Below, one piece after another: positions 6,932 through 14,453 of a DNA stretch of 37,432 nt (positions within the stretch are counted from its first letter, which is position 1; each line of letters starts with the position of its first letter). The notes under the pieces were generated by a model, which did no database searches, was not told the origin of the DNA, and saw only the letters and a list, made by a program, of their open reading frames with translations. The translations under genes were made by a program, and so were the position numbers. Source of the DNA: a virus (taxonomy: Duplodnaviria; Heunggongvirae; Uroviricota; Caudoviricetes); the IMG/VR virus record IMGVR_UViG_2724679140_000013; one strand, 5' to 3'.

Positions 6932-9754
6932 ATGACGGCAGAGTACATCAGGGACTGGCAACAGCCGCGCCACGCAGTGGGACGTGAAGGAACGGGGATC
7001 CCCGTTCCTGAATCCGCGCTTTCCTCCTGGCTGGATGCCTACCGGGCAGAGAACGAGCGCCGCCAGGAAATGGCTGATGCGGCGTTCTCCGCCACGCCGC
7101 TGGGCAACCTGATTAATAAAAGCCTGGATGCACAGGAAAAACAGGACAAAACCATCACACTGGCAGGAGACGCCAGAAAACAGGTACGCGGTGCGGTGGA
7201 TGAAGCCATGGCCTCGCTGCGCCTGCTGCCGTCCTATCTGCGCGATCCGCTTATTCGCCACCTCTCCTTCCTGCGCAAAAAACAGGAAGCCGATCGCCGG
7301 AAAGGCAAAAAGAGCTGGCAGGCTGAACGCTACGCGCGCGGAACCCTGCGCAAAATATTCGAACGTCTGGACCGCACCGACCACCGCTGGCTGACACCGG
7401 GTTATCGCTCCCTTGCCGGACGCGAACGCCTGGATGATTTGCTTTACCTGCCGCAGCTCAACAAGCACCAGATACAGACGCTGGCCACCATGACGGCGGC
7501 GATGTTCAGCAGCACCTTCGAAAAACTCTGCGATGGCTTTGGCGCGACTGATGGCGAGCTGACCATGGAGGTAACGCTGAAGGCGTATCAGATGCTGGCC
7601 CGCATGGCGTTACACCTGCACGCCATGCCTCCGCATTATGACGCACTGACAACAGACAAAGACCGGAGGAACGAACCGGACACGGAGTTGCTGCCGGGCG
7701 CAATCCTTCGCCTGACCTGTGCGGAATGGTGGAAACGCAAACTGTGGCTGTTACGTTGCGAGTGGCGGGAAGAACAACTCCGCGCCGCCTGTCTGGTTTC
7801 CAGAAAAACATCGCCCTATCTGAGCCAGGACGCGTTAAGCGAGTTTCGAGCACAGCGCGAGAAAACACGCGATTTCCTGAAAAGTTTCATGCTGGAAAAC
7901 GAAGACGGGTTCACGATTGATCTCGAGACGGTGTATTACGCGGGAGTAAGTAATCCGGTTCATCGTAAGGCAGAAATGATGGCCACCATGAAGGGGCTGG
8001 AACTTCTGGCCGAAGCCCGTGGCGACAAAGCGGTGTTTCTGACTGTCACCTGCCCGTCAAAATACCACGCCACAACAGAGAACGGTCATCCGAATCCCAA
8101 ATGGAACGGGGCCACCATGCGCGACTCCAGCGATTACCTGGTTAACACGTTTTTTGCGGCGGTCCGCAAGAAACTGAACCGCGACGGCCTGCGCTGGTAT
8201 GGCATCCGCACGGTGGAGCCTCACCATGACGGCACCGTGCACTGGCATATGATGGTCTTTGCTCATCCGGAAGAAATCGACACCATTGTGTCCCACACCC
8301 GCGATATTGCCATTCAGGAAGATCGTCACGAGCTGGGTGATGATATTACCCCACGCTTTAAGGCGGAGTACGTCGACGGCTCAAAAGGCACACCGACCAG
8401 CTACATCGCCACCTACATCGGGAAAAACCTGGACAGCCGTGCCGTGGATGGCATCGACCCGAAAACGGGCAAGCCACGCGTTGACCACGAAACCGGAAAA
8501 TCAATGGCCGAGAGCGTGGAACGCGCCATCGGCTGGGCGCGCCTTCACCGGGTCCGCCAGTTCCAGTTCTTTGGTATCCCCTCCCGTCAGGTGTGGCGTG
8601 AACTGCGCCGCCTTGCCAGCCAGATGGCTCGCAACCCGGAAGGACCGCAACGGCTGAAGGATGACGCAATGGACGCGGTTCTTGCTTCCGCTGATGCCGG
8701 ATGTTTTGCCACCTACATAGAGAAACAGGGCGGCGTACTTGTTCCACGCAAGGACTACCTGATTCGCACCGCCTACGACCTCGCAGATGAGCTGAACGAT
8801 TACGGTGAACAGAGCGTACAGATTTACGGGATCTGGTCACCGCTCATCGGGGAGTCTTCCCGCGTATGCACGCATCCGGACAACTGGAAGCTGGTAAGAC
8901 GCAAACCGGAAGCGGAAGACAGCGCCCGCGAAAATGGTTTTGACCTTCAGGGCGGCCCTGCCGCCCCTTGGACTCGTGGCAATAACTGTCCCCGTATACA
9001 GGAAACGGGCAACAACGGGACAGAACAGCCGGAAGAACGGCCAGCACCGTGGCCGCAGCTTCCTGACGGCGTTGACGTGAATGAATGGATGCGCTCACTG
9101 AAACGGCACGAACACCGGGCGCTGATGCGTTCGCTGCGTGACAAACAGGCAAAAAACAGCAGTGATGAAATGCAGAACTGGACACAGAGCCGCAAACAGC
9201 CACAGCCTTTGCCTGATAACCACGAGTTACTCGCTAAAGAATGGCGGGAGTCTGCTGAATCTCTCGGCCTGCATATCGGTGAACAGCAGATGCAGCACCT
9301 GTTACGGGGCGGCAGTCTGTACGTTGACGGCAGCATCATTGCACCGCAGGGATTTGAAATTGTACGCAAACCGGATACCCGCCCGGACAGCCGAATCACG
9401 CAGCTCTGGCAGCGCCTGAGCCGTAACCACGGCGTAAGCAGCACGGAGATCCGCCATAACCCGGTCGCCAGCTATCTGGAACAGCTGGGGGCATCAGACC
9501 CCGAAGCCGCCGCACGCCTGGCATCCACACTTCAGCAAGACCAGAACACCATGAAAACACCCGTTACCGTGCTTTCTGACATGCTGCGCGCCATCCGCGA
9601 CGCAGAGCACGCACAGAGAATCAGTGAAACCACTGAACGCGCCCGCCGCAAAGCAGACCTGCTGCGGGGTGGCCTGACCAGTGGAAACAAAAAACAGACA
9701 GAAACGGGATTCACAAATCCCGTAAATGAGCAAAAAACGCGCCGCGATATATGA
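6932..9754 (+). CDS. A: Rolling-circle replication initiation endonuclease (P2 gpA family), with a long C-terminal extension
   Basis: 940 aa; HUH-type motif HHDGTVHWHMMVF and paired-tyrosine motif SYIATYIGKN as in P2 A. Confidence 0.9.
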   Translation: MTAEYIRDWQQPRHAVGREGTGIPVPESALSSWLDAYRAENERRQEMADAAFSATPLGNLINKSLDAQEKQDKTITLAGDARKQVRGAVDEAMASLRLLPSYLRDPLIRHLSFLRKKQEADRRKGKKSWQAERYARGTLRKIFERLDRTDHRWLTPGYRSLAGRERLDDLLYLPQLNKHQIQTLATMTAAMFSSTFEKLCDGFGATDGELTMEVTLKAYQMLARMALHLHAMPPHYDALTTDKDRRNEPDTELLPGAILRLTCAEWWKRKLWLLRCEWREEQLRAACLVSRKTSPYLSQDALSEFRAQREKTRDFLKSFMLENEDGFTIDLETVYYAGVSNPVHRKAEMMATMKGLELLAEARGDKAVFLTVTCPSKYHATTENGHPNPKWNGATMRDSSDYLVNTFFAAVRKKLNRDGLRWYGIRTVEPHHDGTVHWHMMVFAHPEEIDTIVSHTRDIAIQEDRHELGDDITPRFKAEYVDGSKGTPTSYIATYIGKNLDSRAVDGIDPKTGKPRVDHETGKSMAESVERAIGWARLHRVRQFQFFGIPSRQVWRELRRLASQMARNPEGPQRLKDDAMDAVLASADAGCFATYIEKQGGVLVPRKDYLIRTAYDLADELNDYGEQSVQIYGIWSPLIGESSRVCTHPDNWKLVRRKPEAEDSARENGFDLQGGPAAPWTRGNNCPRIQETGNNGTEQPEERPAPWPQLPDGVDVNEWMRSLKRHEHRALMRSLRDKQAKNSSDEMQNWTQSRKQPQPLPDNHELLAKEWRESAESLGLHIGEQQMQHLLRGGSLYVDGSIIAPQGFEIVRKPDTRPDSRITQLWQRLSRNHGVSSTEIRHNPVASYLEQLGASDPEAAARLASTLQQDQNTMKTPVTVLSDMLRAIRDAEHAQRISETTERARRKADLLRGGLTSGNKKQTETGFTNPVNEQKTRRDI

Positions 9755-9830: not shown

Positions 9831-10790
9831 ATGAAAATTTGTATCGATGACGGCTCCACCAACATCAAGCTGGCATGGACTGAGAACGGCGAACGCCGCA
9901 ACGCCATCAGCCCGAACAGCTTCAAGTCGGAATGGTCTGCGCCGTTCGGTGGAACGCAGCCCGCAAACTACATGCTTGATGGCGTGCGCTATGGTTTTGA
10001 TCCGGTCAGCGATCGCTTTGTCCAGACGACCGACACGCAATACCAGTACAGCGATGTGAATGTCATTGCCATTCATCACGCGCTGGTCAAATCAGGCATC
10101 ACACCACAGGAAGTGGATGTGGTTGTCACCCTGCCACTGAGCGAATATTTCGACACCAACGCACAGCCGGACATGGCCAACATCAACCGCAAAAAAGCAA
10201 ACGTCATGCGCCCGGTGGCGTACCAGAACGGAAAAGCATTCACTATCCGTAACGTACGGGTTATGCCTGAATCCATTCCGGCTGGTTTTAAAGCACTGGC
10301 TGACATGAGTCCGTTTGAATCCCTGCTGATTGTGGATTTAGGCGGAACCACGCTGGATGTGGCAAAGGTTCAGGGACAACTGGCAGGTATCAGCCAGGTG
10401 TTTTGCGATCCACACGTAGGCGTTTCCCTGATGGCCGATGCCGTACTGTCGGTGATGGCCACTAACGGTATGCGTACCAGTCACCACATCGCCAATACCA
10501 TTATCGAACATCGCCATGATGAAGCCTGGCTGCGCCAGCACATCCACAATGACGCGCATTACGCCAGCCTGATGGCGGTTATTCGTGAAAAGGAAGAAAC
10601 ACTGAAACAACGCGTGATCCGCGCGCTGGCGGGTTTTTCGGGTTACGGGCGGGTGATGGTTGTCGGTGGAGGGGCGGAGATTGTGGCACCCGCTATCCGC
10701 GAAGCCTGCGGAGTTAATGCGACTTTCATCGCGGACGGGGTGCCACAGTTTGCTCTGGTTAACGGGCTGTACGCAATGGACAAGGAGTAA
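9831..10790 (+). CDS. parM: Actin-like plasmid segregation ATPase ParM/StbA
   Basis: 319 aa; collinear with plasmid R1 ParM as I recall it (MKICIDDGSTNIKLAW, ISPNSFKSEW, YQYSDVNVIAIHHAL, VMPESIPAG, LIVDLGGTTLDV, VMVVGGGAE). Confidence 0.9.
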   Translation: MKICIDDGSTNIKLAWTENGERRNAISPNSFKSEWSAPFGGTQPANYMLDGVRYGFDPVSDRFVQTTDTQYQYSDVNVIAIHHALVKSGITPQEVDVVVTLPLSEYFDTNAQPDMANINRKKANVMRPVAYQNGKAFTIRNVRVMPESIPAGFKALADMSPFESLLIVDLGGTTLDVAKVQGQLAGISQVFCDPHVGVSLMADAVLSVMATNGMRTSHHIANTIIEHRHDEAWLRQHIHNDAHYASLMAVIREKEETLKQRVIRALAGFSGYGRVMVVGGGAEIVAPAIREACGVNATFIADGVPQFALVNGLYAMDKE

Positions 10791-10794
10791 ACCA

Positions 10795-11109
10795 ATGACG
10801 ACACCAACCAGACGGATAAGTTTCTATCTGAAGCCAGCTGCAGTCAAGAGTGAACGGGAAGCGTGTAATTATCTCGACAGCCTGCCAGCCTCCGAACGCA
10901 GCCGCGCGCAACGCGCGGCATTTCTGGCTGGACTGGCACTCATTAAAAACGATCCTGCCTTTGCTTACTGGCTGGCTGAATGGTCAGAGGGGGAAAATAT
11001 GCCTGCCAACAATCACATATGGGGCTGGCATAACAGCGAGCCTGTTGGTTGCAAAAATCAGAATATAAGTCAAATAAAAAAGAATATTCAGGAATTTTTT
11101 CCTGAATGA
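10795..11109 (+). CDS. parR: ParR-like centromere-binding adaptor (RHH)
   Basis: 104 aa; SD AGGAG; RRISFYLKP...LDSLPASERSRAQRAAFLAGLALIKNDP parallels the R1 ParR N-terminal domain; directly downstream of parM. Confidence 0.75.
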   Translation: MTTPTRRISFYLKPAAVKSEREACNYLDSLPASERSRAQRAAFLAGLALIKNDPAFAYWLAEWSEGENMPANNHIWGWHNSEPVGCKNQNISQIKKNIQEFFPE

Positions 11110-11113
11110 TCAC

Positions 11114-11140
11114 AAAAAGCATGGCTTTCGCCATGCTTTT
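11114..11140. terminator. Bidirectional intrinsic terminator
   Basis: AAAAAGCATGGC-TTTC-GCCATGCTTTT; A-run and T-run flank the stem; lies between convergent parR and the 49-aa ORF. Confidence 0.7.
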
Positions 11141-11152
11141 AAATATCAAATA

Positions 11153-11302
11153 TCAGCTTCGCACTAGAAACGCCCAAGCTTTCCAGCCATACTCATGAGC
11201 ATCCAGCTTTCGACCAGAATCACCACGAACCTTACGGTATCGGCAAAACTGCCAACGAAATCCTTTCGGAGCCGGTTTTTTTACAATTGATTTCAAAGCC
11301 AT
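11153..11302 (-). CDS. Possible 49-aa basic mini-protein
   Basis: AAGGAGG 9 nt upstream of the ATG; MALKSIVKKPAPKGFRWQFCRYRKVRGDSGRKLDAHEYGWKAWAFLVRS; bracketed by terminators; below the ORF-track cutoff. Confidence 0.35.
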   Translation of the reverse strand: MALKSIVKKPAPKGFRWQFCRYRKVRGDSGRKLDAHEYGWKAWAFLVRS

Positions 11303-11430
11303 CCATAATCACCTCCTTACTGAGAATGATTTTTACCTTGATTATCTGCCTGGATTGACTAGAATCACAGTTGTACATGCAAAACATCAAGGTGATGATA
11401 TTTCTCAGACTATCATTCCTTTGTGTTGAA

Positions 11431-11462
11431 AAGCCCCTGACGGTTGGCCCCGTCAGGGGCTT
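11431..11462 (-). terminator. Intrinsic terminator of the toxin-antitoxin operon
   Basis: Minus strand reads AAGCCCCTGACGGGGCCAACCGTCAGGGGCTT followed by TTTCAA; begins 6 nt after the antitoxin stop. Confidence 0.65.
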
Positions 11463-11467
11463 AATAT

Positions 11468-11785
11468 TTATGCAACCTGACAGGAATGTTCTGCCGTCGC
11501 AGTAACAACCCCACCGGAATACCCAAACTTAAAATCCCACCCCAGGATGTTTAGCATGATAAACAGTCGATCAATGGTATGATTATCTAACTTACCATTA
11601 ATGATTTCGCTTACTCTTGGTTGGGTTGTTTCCAGCAATTCAGCAGCTTCTCGCTGGGTAAGACCGCGCTCCTGAATCATTTTTCGGATAATAACCATTA
11701 ATTGGGCCCGGATGTGTTTATCACTAGCTTCATTTACAGAGCTACTTGATGACGCATAAGGGTTTTTGACTACGACGAATTCCAT
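11468..11785 (-). CDS. XRE-family HTH antitoxin (HigA-like)
   Basis: 105 aa; GLTQREAAELLETTQPRVSEIINGKLDNHTIDRLFIMLNILG is the typical HigA/XRE antitoxin pattern; downstream of the toxin. Confidence 0.8.
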   Translation of the reverse strand: MEFVVVKNPYASSSSSVNEASDKHIRAQLMVIIRKMIQERGLTQREAAELLETTQPRVSEIINGKLDNHTIDRLFIMLNILGWDFKFGYSGGVVTATAEHSCQVA

Positions 11786-11855
11786 AACTCTCCAGCCTTA
11801 ATCAGCGATGTTGCTGACATTGATTATGTTATATCAGATTTGAGATACCTGCAAG

Positions 11856-12257
11856 CTATCTTAAGCCATTTTTACGACGATACTCCACTAATTGTTTGTA
11901 TCTTGCGGCAGCTGTCTCATATTCTTTTTTTGACACACCATTTGTCTTTTTCTTAAATGTATGAAGTATGTAAACAGACTCCGCAAATTTCGCAACGTAA
12001 ATCATACGATAAGAATCACTACTCTTGATGGTTAATTGCATTGCGTAGCGACCAATCGTTTCCCGCATTGATTTTTTTTGAGCAGGTGGAACCCCCAAGG
12101 CATCATCACCATCCACTGGAAAATCGAAACTGTCGAAAGAATGAGGACAATCGCTCTGCAGTGCAACAAGCTCAAAATTTATCCTTTCTCGAACAGCTTC
12201 AGGATAACTATCAATTTGTTTCTGAATTTTATCATTCCAATATGTGATGTCTTTCAC
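11856..12257 (-). CDS. Gp49/RelE-HigB-superfamily toxin
   Basis: 133 aa, GTG start with SD GAGAGG; YRMIYVAKFAESVYILHTFKKKTNGVSKKEYETAAARYKQL matches the Gp49-like RelE/ParE toxin C-terminal pattern; toxin-first order as in higBA. Confidence 0.7.
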   Translation of the reverse strand: MKDITYWNDKIQKQIDSYPEAVRERINFELVALQSDCPHSFDSFDFPVDGDDALGVPPAQKKSMRETIGRYAMQLTIKSSDSYRMIYVAKFAESVYILHTFKKKTNGVSKKEYETAAARYKQLVEYRRKNGLR

Positions 12258-12288
12258 TCAGAACCTCTCACCAACGTAACCGAACGAA

Positions 12289-12296
12289 ATTATACA
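12289..12296 (-). promoter_or_regulatory. Extended -10 element (TGTATAAT) for the toxin-antitoxin operon
   Basis: Minus strand reads TGTATAAT about 30 nt upstream of the toxin GTG. Confidence 0.45.
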
Positions 12297-12348
12297 AAGA
12301 TCTTTTTTTCGCTTAAATACATCCACTGAACGTTGATTTTAATGCAAG

Positions 12349-12370
12349 ATTGTGCACAAATTTGCACAAT
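12349..12370. promoter_or_regulatory. Operator-like half-site array
   Basis: ATTGTGC-N8-GCACAAT; contains the 10-bp palindrome TTGTGCACAA; GTGCACAAA recurs at 12434-12442. Confidence 0.4.
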
Positions 12371-12394
12371 TTTTTTGAACGACTTTTTGCCCTT

Positions 12395-12470
12395 CCGGCC
12401 CGCGTGGCGGCTGGATCCGCCAAGGATCCGTGCGTGCACAAAAAAACGCGTTTTTTCTGCGCGCAGGTGA
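12395..12470. other. Candidate cos (cohesive end / terminase recognition) core
   Basis: Position matches P2 cos (between the hotspot and Q); GCGTGGCGG matches the core of the 186-type cohesive end GGCGTGGCGGGGAAAGCAT as I recall it; GGATCCG repeated 11 bp apart; GGCGG/CCGCC dyad; palindrome AAAAAACGCGTTTTTT (12441-12456). Confidence 0.3.
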
Positions 12471-12741
12471 CGGGGGAACAGCCCGCGTTTCAGGGGGTAA
12501 ATAGCATTCCCTGAACGATGTCGCAGCGACACAACAGAATGGCTGTATCGCTCACGCTGAGCGTGAAAAATACGTAAGGGGTTCTGATTTGATGGGGTGA
12601 AAGGTAAGGCCGTCAAATCGCAATGAGACGGCGAGAACATGCTGTCAGCTCGATGGGATTGCGTAAGAGTCTGGCCATCGATGATGGCGATAAGTTGGAA
12701 GACGTCGTGAAATTATCTGATTGATACGGGAGCTGGAGAGT

Positions 12742-12766
12742 CGGGGCATAAATTTTTTATGCCCCG
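12742..12766. other. Perfect 11-bp-stem hairpin
   Basis: CGGGGCATAAA-TTT-TTTATGCCCCG; no flanking U-run on either strand. Confidence 0.5.
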
Positions 12767-12867
12767 GCGAAGCAGCAGACAAGCGAAGCGCGTCAGTGAT
12801 GCGGCACCTTGCCGACCACACTCCATAAGTGCAAAATACGAGCAAAGAAATCAATGGAGGCTGTTTT

Positions 12868-13392
12868 ATGGTCATTAATTACAAGCAGTTACGAGAAAAA
12901 CGAGAGCAGGTAAAGGAAAGTTTTCGCCGCAATGAAGATCTGACCCCGCTTGTACACCTTGCCCAGGGAATTGTTGATGCTTATGAAATCTCTCTGGAGC
13001 TGCCATCACAGACATGGACGGATAGCGACGGTAATCGCCAGCATTACGTTTCATGCGGACTGGAAACAACTGAAGGGTTTCGCAGAATGCCTTTATCTCA
13101 GATTCCTGCCGCTACCCCCAAAGCAAGGGGCGGCAATGATGAGCGAAAACTGATTTTTAGCATTGAGACAGTGGTTGACGACACACCTGGCGAAGTCGCG
13201 TTCGTGCATACTCCTCTTTCGATCGCAATGTATAACGATGAAATACAGGTTCGCGTTAATAATAATATCGTGCCACTTAAAGAAGGTAATTCACCCTACA
13301 CCACCGTTTGTGAAGCCATTCAATATTACGTTCTCTCTGAAATTGATAATCTCAAGCCTGACGGCACCCAGAAAATGGTTCAACTCTGGTAA
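12868..13392 (+). CDS. Hypothetical 174-aa orphan between the probable cos and the portal gene
   Basis: SD GGAGG 7 nt upstream of ATG 12868 (preferred to the 12829 ORF start); own terminator; no motif I recognise. Confidence 0.6.
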   Translation: MVINYKQLREKREQVKESFRRNEDLTPLVHLAQGIVDAYEISLELPSQTWTDSDGNRQHYVSCGLETTEGFRRMPLSQIPAATPKARGGNDERKLIFSIETVVDDTPGEVAFVHTPLSIAMYNDEIQVRVNNNIVPLKEGNSPYTTVCEAIQYYVLSEIDNLKPDGTQKMVQLW

Positions 13393-13397
13393 TAAGG

Positions 13398-13423
13398 ACA
13401 GCCCCATCACGGGGCTGTTTTTT
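13398..13423. terminator. Bidirectional intrinsic terminator shared by the 174-aa gene and Q
   Basis: ACAGCCCC-ATCAC-GGGGCTGT followed by T6; overlaps the last codons of Q. Confidence 0.7.
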
Positions 13424-14453
13424 CATCAAGAAGTGCATAAGAGTTAAAACGGATCACCTCTTCGCCAAGCCAGTCATTGATGTGCTTCATGGCCTCCATG
13501 ACGGGCATCAGCTCGTTAATTGCGTAAACCCGCGCGGCCTTCTCCACATCACCAAACGCACTTTTTTCACCCGGCATCGCCCCCATCAGTTGCGGCGGAA
13601 CGCGGTGCGCAGCCAGCACATCATCACGGGATGCCGCCTTAACATTCATGAACTCATCCTTTGCGGTGATCTGCTGGAACGGCAAAATTTGCACCCCCTC
13701 TTTGCCCCCGTTGGGCGCATGAATGAGCACGTTTTTAAACGCACCACCACCACGTGCCCCCTGTAGCGTTTCTTTCAGGGAGTCCATGCTTTCGCGGTTT
13801 ACCTGCGCTGCACCGATGTAGATGATGCACCCGGCGTGGGATCCGTTGTCGTAATACAGTTTTCTGAACATGTCCGCCGAATGAGACAGGCTGGCCGAGA
13901 GTAATGCGCCAAGATATTCCGGCATGCCGTAAATTTCCTGGTTAATGTCAGGATTCATCAGGTGGCACACTTTACCAGGGCGAAACTGAAACGCATCCTT
14001 GCCATCCTGCACATACCACCATGATTCAAGATCGCTTCCGCGTCGCATGTATTTCGCCAGGGCGTGCCGTAATTTAAGCGGTTCGCCGAGCATATTGCTC
14101 CGAAGCTCAAGGAATGCGTTACCGAACACAAACCAGTCCAGCGCCAGCGCCGAGAAATCCTGCCGGGAAAGCAGCGGGTGCGGAATGTAGCAACCGAGCA
14201 ATACATTACGCTTAAAGTAAAGCGCAGACTGATGCCAGGACGTTTGCCGGGCAGCTCTTGCCAGACCGTACCAGTCCACCGGGGTTTCATACCACCGCCC
14301 GTTATCAGCACAGTACATGTTGTCCAGCAGGTCATGCCCGGTCAGGCGATAAGGACCATCAAATGTGAATGCACTGAGCGATGATTCTTTCCTGAGCGCA
14401 TCAGCGAGATCAATGCGTGAACTCATGCGCACTTTTTTATTTTTTCTGCTCAT
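13407..14453 (-). CDS. Q: Portal protein (P2 gpQ)
   Basis: 348 aa; size, position and orientation as P2 Q; overlaps the P stop. Confidence 0.9.
   Translation of the reverse strand: MSRKNKKVRMSSRIDLADALRKESSLSAFTFDGPYRLTGHDLLDNMYCADNGRWYETPVDWYGLARAARQTSWHQSALYFKRNVLLGCYIPHPLLSRQDFSALALDWFVFGNAFLELRSNMLGEPLKLRHALAKYMRRGSDLESWWYVQDGKDAFQFRPGKVCHLMNPDINQEIYGMPEYLGALLSASLSHSADMFRKLYYDNGSHAGCIIYIGAAQVNRESMDSLKETLQGARGGGAFKNVLIHAPNGGKEGVQILPFQQITAKDEFMNVKAASRDDVLAAHRVPPQLMGAMPGEKSAFGDVEKAARVYAINELMPVMEAMKHINDWLGEEVIRFNSYALLDEKTAP

Follow-up and report, generated by a model that had tools for sequence, protein, structure and literature searches.

What does a gene do that sits between the packaging site and the portal gene of a P2-family prophage, at a junction where P2 itself has nothing? 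The question is raised by the viral record IMGVR_UViG_2724679140_000013 (37,432 nucleotides (nt); this whole stretch is referred to as the window), which holds an open reading frame (ORF) of 174 amino acids (aa) between the probable cohesive-end site (cos) and the portal gene Q. A sequence-only reading of this DNA had called the ORF an orphan and a self-contained moron and had considered defence, anti-defence or lysogenic conversion as its role. Comparison with related phages and bacterial genomes shows that a compact moron cassette, with the 174-aa gene as its cargo, is inserted at the 3' end of the portal gene in a P88-type (Xuanwuvirus-like) E. coli prophage of the P2 family. For the protein itself, we tentatively favour a role in phage exclusion.

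A moron cassette at the portal gene

The elements of the junction, in window coordinates, are the following.

12797-13424, unstranded: inserted cassette of 628 base pairs (bp), with 15 bp at this place in gene-free P88-type phages; from alignment with P88, P88_4B11 and PhiR44_2
12809-12837, plus strand: weak, predicted promoter-like element TTGCCG-17 nt-CAAAAT, agreeing with the sigma-70 consensus at 8/12 positions
12856-12860, plus strand: Shine-Dalgarno sequence (SD) GGAGG, spaced 7 nt from the ATG; visible in the sequence itself
12868 (ATG) to 13390-13392 (TAA), plus strand: coding sequence of 174 aa, PHROG 5091; from the ORF, orthologues and codon differences
13397-13424, unstranded: terminator, consisting of a hairpin (13397-13418) and a T-run, from folding energies; the same bases hold the last five codons and the stop of Q
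13407-14453, minus strand: portal gene Q, the backbone neighbour, its 3' end remodelled by the insert; from alignment with P88

The 174-aa ORF is a real gene, because the codon differences from the PhiR44_2 allele are mostly synonymous (17 synonymous and 6 non-synonymous) and orthologues with 46-99% identity keep the same start. It encodes MVINYKQLREKREQ...QKMVQLW, 174 residues, and the good SD noticed from the sequence alone is in place at 12856-12860. An alternative start at GTG 12829 (187 aa) was discarded, as all orthologues begin at MVINYK. A prophage of E. coli M8 (L017, NZ_CP019953) has a copy of the gene at 100% identity. In the M8 prophage, replication gene A bears a frameshift annotation, and the cargo is another one, degraded in part; the window therefore represents a close relative of the M8 prophage and not the same one.

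The limits of the insert are sharply defined. The left shared flank stops at ...GCGAAGCGCGTCAG (12783-12796), and homology restarts inside the Q coding sequence. In P88 the TCA of GCGAAGCGCGTCAG is the stop codon of Q; because the 628 bp replace 15 bp of P88, the C terminus of Q reads ...LLDEKTAP* in the window versus ...LLDTQPTS* in P88. The stretch 12332-12796 on the left side of the gene, roughly 470 bp, is common to P88, 520873, 500465-2, Chuche, Shae_phiSM and P88_4B11 at about 91-93% identity, and in these six gene-free phages the left-hand stretch continues directly into the portal gene. The region 12332-12796 is conserved backbone that is present with or without the gene, and the earlier idea that the gene works together with this structured upstream region was not borne out.

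The junction was also surveyed in 5,426 complete E. coli genomes. The cos-side backbone is present in 1,141 of them, the 174-aa gene in 396 (7%), including sequence type 131 (ST131) strain EC958 and Shiga toxin-producing E. coli (STEC) strains, and an uninterrupted, empty P88-type junction in 771. On the basis of these counts, the junction has essentially two states, empty or cassette; about one-third of P88-type prophages carry the insert and about two-thirds are without it. As genome comparison shows, the cassette is thus optional in the P88-type lineage. The sequence-only reading had proposed such a presence/absence survey and had named, as the finding that would speak against its view, a conserved structural or packaging accessory of the lineage; absence from about two-thirds of P88-type prophages does not agree with such a gene. 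Clean junctions, presence and absence among otherwise collinear relatives and an own terminator directly after the gene are the marks of a moron, and the empty junction, the own SD and terminator and the homologues at other accessory positions (see below) bear out that designation.

In a collection of 50,697 phage records, the gene was found in four, all of them temperate P2-like phages, and it was absent from all virulent phages. Its presence in these four records implies that it does not block recovery of these P2-like phages. The gene does not behave as part of the structural or packaging core of the P2 family either: it is absent from P2, 186 and P88, and the positions of its homologues vary. 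Sequence comparison therefore supports an accessory, self-contained cassette.

The terminator hairpin GACAGCCCC-ATCAC-GGGGCTGT (13397-13418) begins 5 bases past the stop codon of the gene, is followed by T6 and carries the stop codon of Q (13407-13409) in its loop. Its folding energy is -20.6 kcal/mol on the plus strand (z -5.9) and -16.8 kcal/mol on the minus strand (z -4.3). The sequence-only reading had described a strong bidirectional terminator over the last codons of Q; the hairpin indeed folds on both strands and overlaps Q, but its minus-strand tail CCUUAUUAC is U-poor, and the terminator is therefore canonical only for the 174-aa gene. Upstream, the interval from the insertion boundary to the ATG measures 71 nt and includes the weak promoter-like element, a putative but likely promoter of the gene. 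A Salmonella orthologue (62% protein identity) retains TTGTCT-17-CAAAAT and the block GCAAAATAC upstream of its start, with diverged surroundings.

The PHROG 5091 family and its product

The designation as an orphan holds only in part. No Pfam, NCBIfam or PADLOC family was found for the protein, and the same scans of 48 relatives gave no family, but the protein belongs to the sparsely populated PHROG 5091 (E 6.8e-67), with residues 1-168 matching profile positions 1-164 of 164 and hence the full length of the family. All 48 aligned relatives also match PHROG 5091, and an exhaustive profile search of 1.84 billion cluster representatives returned 85 at E <= 0.001, most of them full-length with about 155-185 aa. 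Membership names the family only, as this PHROG is without functional annotation. PADLOC-DB v2 gave a single marginal match (E 0.009), in one of the 48 relatives. In the literature no study was found for the accessions of the protein, its sequence or PHROG 5091; the family is catalogued, and its members are 'hypothetical' in the tables of Rousset et al., but apparently nobody has studied it.

Named sources of family members are E. coli, Salmonella, Trabulsiella, Serratia, Morganella, Edwardsiella, Xenorhabdus and an insect symbiont. All readable contexts are prophages or viral contigs, in which the gene is found at six or more distinct positions.

Between cos and the portal gene: P2-like prophages of E. 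coli, Salmonella and Morganella
Immediately after gpA and ahead of HicB-linked and Phd/Fic modules: 186-like prophage of Trabulsiella
Between antiterminator Q or NinG and holin: lambdoid
Between Rz and HNH/terminase: lambdoid
Between tail chaperone and tape measure: myovirus tail module
Beside baseplate hub and spike: myovirus tail module

Two plasmid matches were not accepted as a separate context, since in both cases a plasmid had taken up the same prophage.

A canonical intrinsic terminator lies at most 90 nt downstream of 21 of the 26 family genes, as compared with 56 of 390 other ORFs from the same, partly related loci (Fisher p 1e-12), and a separate terminator scanner confirms the family terminators of L012, L028 and L031. 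Even inside tail or lysis/packaging operons the family gene is insulated by a terminator. That it keeps its own terminator within late operons marks it as a moron whose transcription is kept out of the lytic genes. At the level of sequence, these results show that PHROG 5091 moves among temperate Enterobacterales phages as a unit of gene plus terminator.

The architecture recalls the lambdoid morons in the sense of Hendrix and Juhala, such as lambda bor and lom, which are promoter-gene-terminator units placed between genes of the backbone, are likewise present or absent among collinear relatives and use the same permissive sites (antiterminator Q-holin and lysis-terminase) as PHROG 5091 members. 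In contrast to these, the promoter of the 174-aa gene is only predicted, and whereas Bor and Lom are membrane proteins or lipoproteins, the 174-aa product would be cytoplasmic.

Three further observations were made on the family. The 51.7-kb viral contig IMGVR_UViG_2627854076_000003 holds two paralogues (L040 and L049) with 35% identity, one after an Rz-like lysis gene and the other after the baseplate spike. A protein of 3,099 aa, P0030, matches profile positions 90-137, the central beta-hairpin, in ten stretches (E 1e-13) and could be either a repeat protein of a related beta unit or a compositional artefact. Most of the distant members (L010, L012, L031-L035, L038-L041 and L043-L047) have in common, within about 60 nt upstream of the homologue, a block aGGTGgTAAtcATGctnATTCG...GGAGAAagg before the ATG, which can be taken for a conserved extension of 11-12 codons (MLIR...) that has an SD of its own, or else for a conserved 5' leader; some loci have this block out of frame or without the ATG, and the P2-like subfamily of E. 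coli and Salmonella lacks it.

The AlphaFold model of the protein, computed with 48 sequences, reached a predicted local distance difference test score (pLDDT) of 91 and a predicted template modelling score (pTM) of 0.81. In this model, an antiparallel sheet is preceded by two helices at the N terminus and followed by one at the C terminus. Protein-binding modules are the nearest folds, but they match weakly throughout, with scores at noise level; the closest solved one is the FP dimerisation domain of PI31/Fbxo7, itself a weak match. Structure prediction, which had been suggested as a check, thus gave no informative fold match. Matches found by phmmer in the PDB (E down to 2.6e-7, residues 124-169) to de novo designed helical-repeat proteins were rejected, as they vanish with the family profile; designed, idealised sequences can yield misleading E-values.

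Mean column identity of the family is 33%. The nearly invariant residues L43, Y39, S42, W50, G55, Y60, V61, F97 and T101 are hydrophobic, aromatic or small, and a TVxDD motif is frequent in the family alignment; no catalytic constellation is evident among the conserved positions in the alignment of 48 relatives. The isoelectric point (pI) is 5.0 with a net charge of -7 over 174 aa, and the family median pI is 5.1. In agreement with the sequence-only reading, which recognised no motif, transmembrane (TM) segment or signal peptide, the protein has no Pfam or NCBIfam match, no hydrophobic or TM segment and no secretion signal. Conserved residues, pI and soluble character would fit a non-enzymatic binding protein.

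A proposed role in exclusion and its competitors

The gpA-gpQ region of P2-like phages is described as a defence hotspot by Rousset et al. (2022, PMC9122126), and the 174-aa gene is encoded between gene A and portal gene Q of a P2-like prophage. On the basis of its position and architecture we regard it as a reasonable candidate phage-conflict factor, and our best guess, which falls somewhat short of an even chance, is that a lysogen-expressed protein binds a partner and thereby acts in phage exclusion or defence. In this model, the cassette of short upstream region with weak promoter-like element, SD, ORF and intrinsic terminator would constitute a unit of its own, and the gene would be transcribed alone from the repressed prophage. 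The small, soluble and mildly acidic alpha/beta product would act stoichiometrically by binding another protein; like P2 Tin, it would poison an essential protein of an invading phage and not function as an enzyme. Autonomous transcription from the repressed prophage is most likely, as judged by the orientation of the cassette opposite to the late P-Q operon, the insulating terminator, the confinement of the gene to temperate phages and a promoter-like arrangement that is conserved.

P2 Tin is a non-enzymatic protein that poisons a protein of the invader. Like P2 tin, old and fun(Z), the 174-aa gene is an accessory gene of a P2-family prophage, dispensable for the phage and variable between relatives, and it shares with tin and old the location in the cos-proximal gpA-gpQ region (PMC9122126). 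It differs from tin, old and fun(Z) in that the 174-aa protein has no sequence or fold relation to their products, and that its gene is found on the side of cos that faces Q, which is empty in P2. A wider claim, namely that PHROG 5091 is a new single-protein exclusion or counter-defence family with a fold unseen among solved structures, spread as a cassette in P2-like, lambdoid and other temperate phages, appears possible but somewhat less probable still.

Several results weigh against exclusion. The promoter-like element scores only 8/12, below the scanner threshold of 9/12, and was hence not called, and promoter-like sites upstream of distant family members are not above shuffled expectation. 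At the exact E. coli junction only two states occur, so that the junction itself does not behave as a diverse defence hotspot. No PADLOC-DB v2 model matches the window protein at E <= 1. Table S5 of Rousset et al. (PMC9122126) lists the protein (WP_000236495, WP_001407222) as 'hypothetical' only, and its sequence does not occur in the supplementary files of that study, the table of tested systems included. Finally, the lambdoid and myovirus copies run in the same direction as late genes, which would allow late expression or an anti-defence role.

The last point leads to the main rival of exclusion, an anti-defence factor: a small inhibitor, made on infection or induction, that would bind an immune protein of the host or of a resident prophage and protect the carrier phage. 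The protein is small, acidic, non-enzymatic and encoded by a single gene, its family diverges fast, and copies lie co-oriented inside late transcription units of lambdoid and myovirus prophages; two paralogues in one prophage, as in the contig described above, are often met in inhibitor families. However, the family is absent from virulent phages among the 50,697 records, a terminator just after the gene better fits expression from a silent prophage than during the lytic cycle, and in P2-like prophages the gene points away from early and late operons alike. The noise-level fold scores do not favour such an inhibitor, nor is a pI of 5.0 that of a DNA mimic: Ocr/ArdA-type DNA mimics have a strongly acidic surface, whereas the 174-aa protein carries a net charge of -7 and gives no fold match to them. 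We therefore consider anti-defence unlikely, although it comes closest to exclusion.

Rather less plausible is host-directed lysogenic conversion apart from phage conflict, for example through modulation of a host regulator, a stress response or a cell-cycle protein. Such a role would suit the moron architecture with its own terminator and the frequency of the gene in E. coli, where it reaches ST131 EC958 and STEC strains, but the protein is without secretion signal or TM segment and the carriers span very different niches, from E. coli to an insect symbiont. This diversity speaks for a target general to phage biology and against a niche trait.

Improbable, too, is an accessory role in morphogenesis or in the virion, be it as an assembly chaperone or as a minor protein that is ejected or belongs to the tail. 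Tail modules do hold some of the homologues, either in the interval from chaperone to tape measure or next to baseplate hub and spike; the start of the Serratia copy overlaps the end of the preceding gene, and the protein weakly resembles type III secretion chaperones and DarA. However, viable phages of the P88 lineage exist without the gene, the related phages L007 and L049 have it at different places with respect to hub and spike, terminators follow it even within tail operons, and in P2-like prophages it is convergent with the portal gene and outside any late operon. A packaging or cos accessory, which would modulate terminase or interfere with the packaging of a satellite (P4) or a rival phage, is the least probable explanation, for although many copies lie at the packaging boundary (cos-portal in P2-like phages and Rz-HNH/TerS/TerL in lambdoid phages), this boundary is a generally permissive moron site, other copies are found between antiterminator Q and holin, after gpA or in tail modules, and P2, 186 and P88 package their DNA without the gene.

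Moron or hotspot cargo is a well-known kind of gene and as such unsurprising to a specialist; the protein, however, has no solved relative of its fold. If exclusion or counter-defence is correct, PHROG 5091 would represent a further compact system of one gene, undescribed in its fold and common in clinical E. coli lineages. The whole cassette comprises 628 bp and is easy to test, and the empty/occupied polymorphism in otherwise near-identical prophages offers ready-made isogenic comparisons. Should no phenotype emerge, the gene would be one more hypothetical moron, yet the two-state cos-Q junction of the lineage would still have been clarified.

The probable cos, the upstream backbone and neighbouring cargo

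The window is a complete P2-family prophage with integrase, gene A, ParM, portal Q, terminase P and late genes. Outside the cassette, the following features were assigned.

1-1002: integrase
6932-9754: replication gene A, an ORF of 940 aa collinear with the annotated replication endonuclease of related prophages
9831-10790: ParM (StbA_N/ParM)
11468-11785, minus strand: HTH_37/XRE antitoxin-like gene, 105 aa, downstream of the toxin-like gene (E 8e-19)
11856-12257, minus strand: Gp49/DUF891 (HigB/RelE-type) toxin-like gene, 133 aa (Pfam E 3e-13)
12466-12483, unstranded: probable cos cohesive-end sequence GGTGACGGGGGAACAGCC, aligned with the annotated 19-nt cos of P2 and 186; backbone, outside the cassette
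12742-12766, unstranded: perfect palindrome with 11-bp arms, CGGGGCATAAA-TTT-TTTATGCCCCG, folding z -6.3 (plus strand) and -4.3 (minus strand); backbone

Alignment with P2 and 186 places a probable cos at 12466-12483, preceded by the conserved left flank GTGCACAAAAAAACG (GTGCA..AAAA.CG; window 12434-12448) that P2 and 186 have in common. The placement of the gene between cos and Q was thus correct, as was the remark that P2 has no gene there: P2 and 186 hold nothing but a terminator in the interval from cos (1-19) to Q/W. A P2-like prophage of Morganella shows a cos of the 186 type more clearly, GGCGTGGCGGGGCTACGAT, about 320 bp upstream of the homologue, which is again followed by a terminator and then by the portal gene. 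The linear P88_4B11 record (NC_049391) begins about 78 nt to the left of the P2/186 cos-like sequence. Its start (approximately window 12389) was rejected as the cos end because 12466-12483 aligns with the P2/186 cos and flank; either the cut that linearised this record is not at the physical end, or the cos of Xuanwuvirus is another than the predicted site.

Adjacent to gene A, ParM and ParR-like partition genes (window 9831-11109) follow directly. Approximately one-quarter of P2-like phages have a plasmid-type partition system (Rousset et al., PMC9122126), which the ParM/ParR genes of the window fit. The HigB/HigA-like pair at 11468-12257 probably is a type II toxin-antitoxin. Between ParR and cos, other carriers of the 174-aa gene have different cargo, namely DUF4760 and a hypothetical gene in EC958 and Ead/Ea22 in STEC409, and the 174-aa gene is therefore not tied to that cargo. 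This variable cargo sits on the other (A) side of cos and not at the cos-Q junction.

An Rfam scan of 11000-13600 gave nothing above noise, so that the upstream region is not a known RNA. The palindrome at 12742-12766 is kept in gene-free P88-type phages, in which it lies about 30 nt past the stop of Q; without a T-run on either strand, it does not qualify as a canonical terminator. Of the five TGCACAA heptamers in the 37-kb window, four cluster just to the left of the predicted cos, at 12350 (minus strand), 12353, 12363 and 12435. This block (window 12350-12441) is conserved in P88 and in the Salmonella relative, and it could be a binding array for terminase or a host factor, or a regulatory site.

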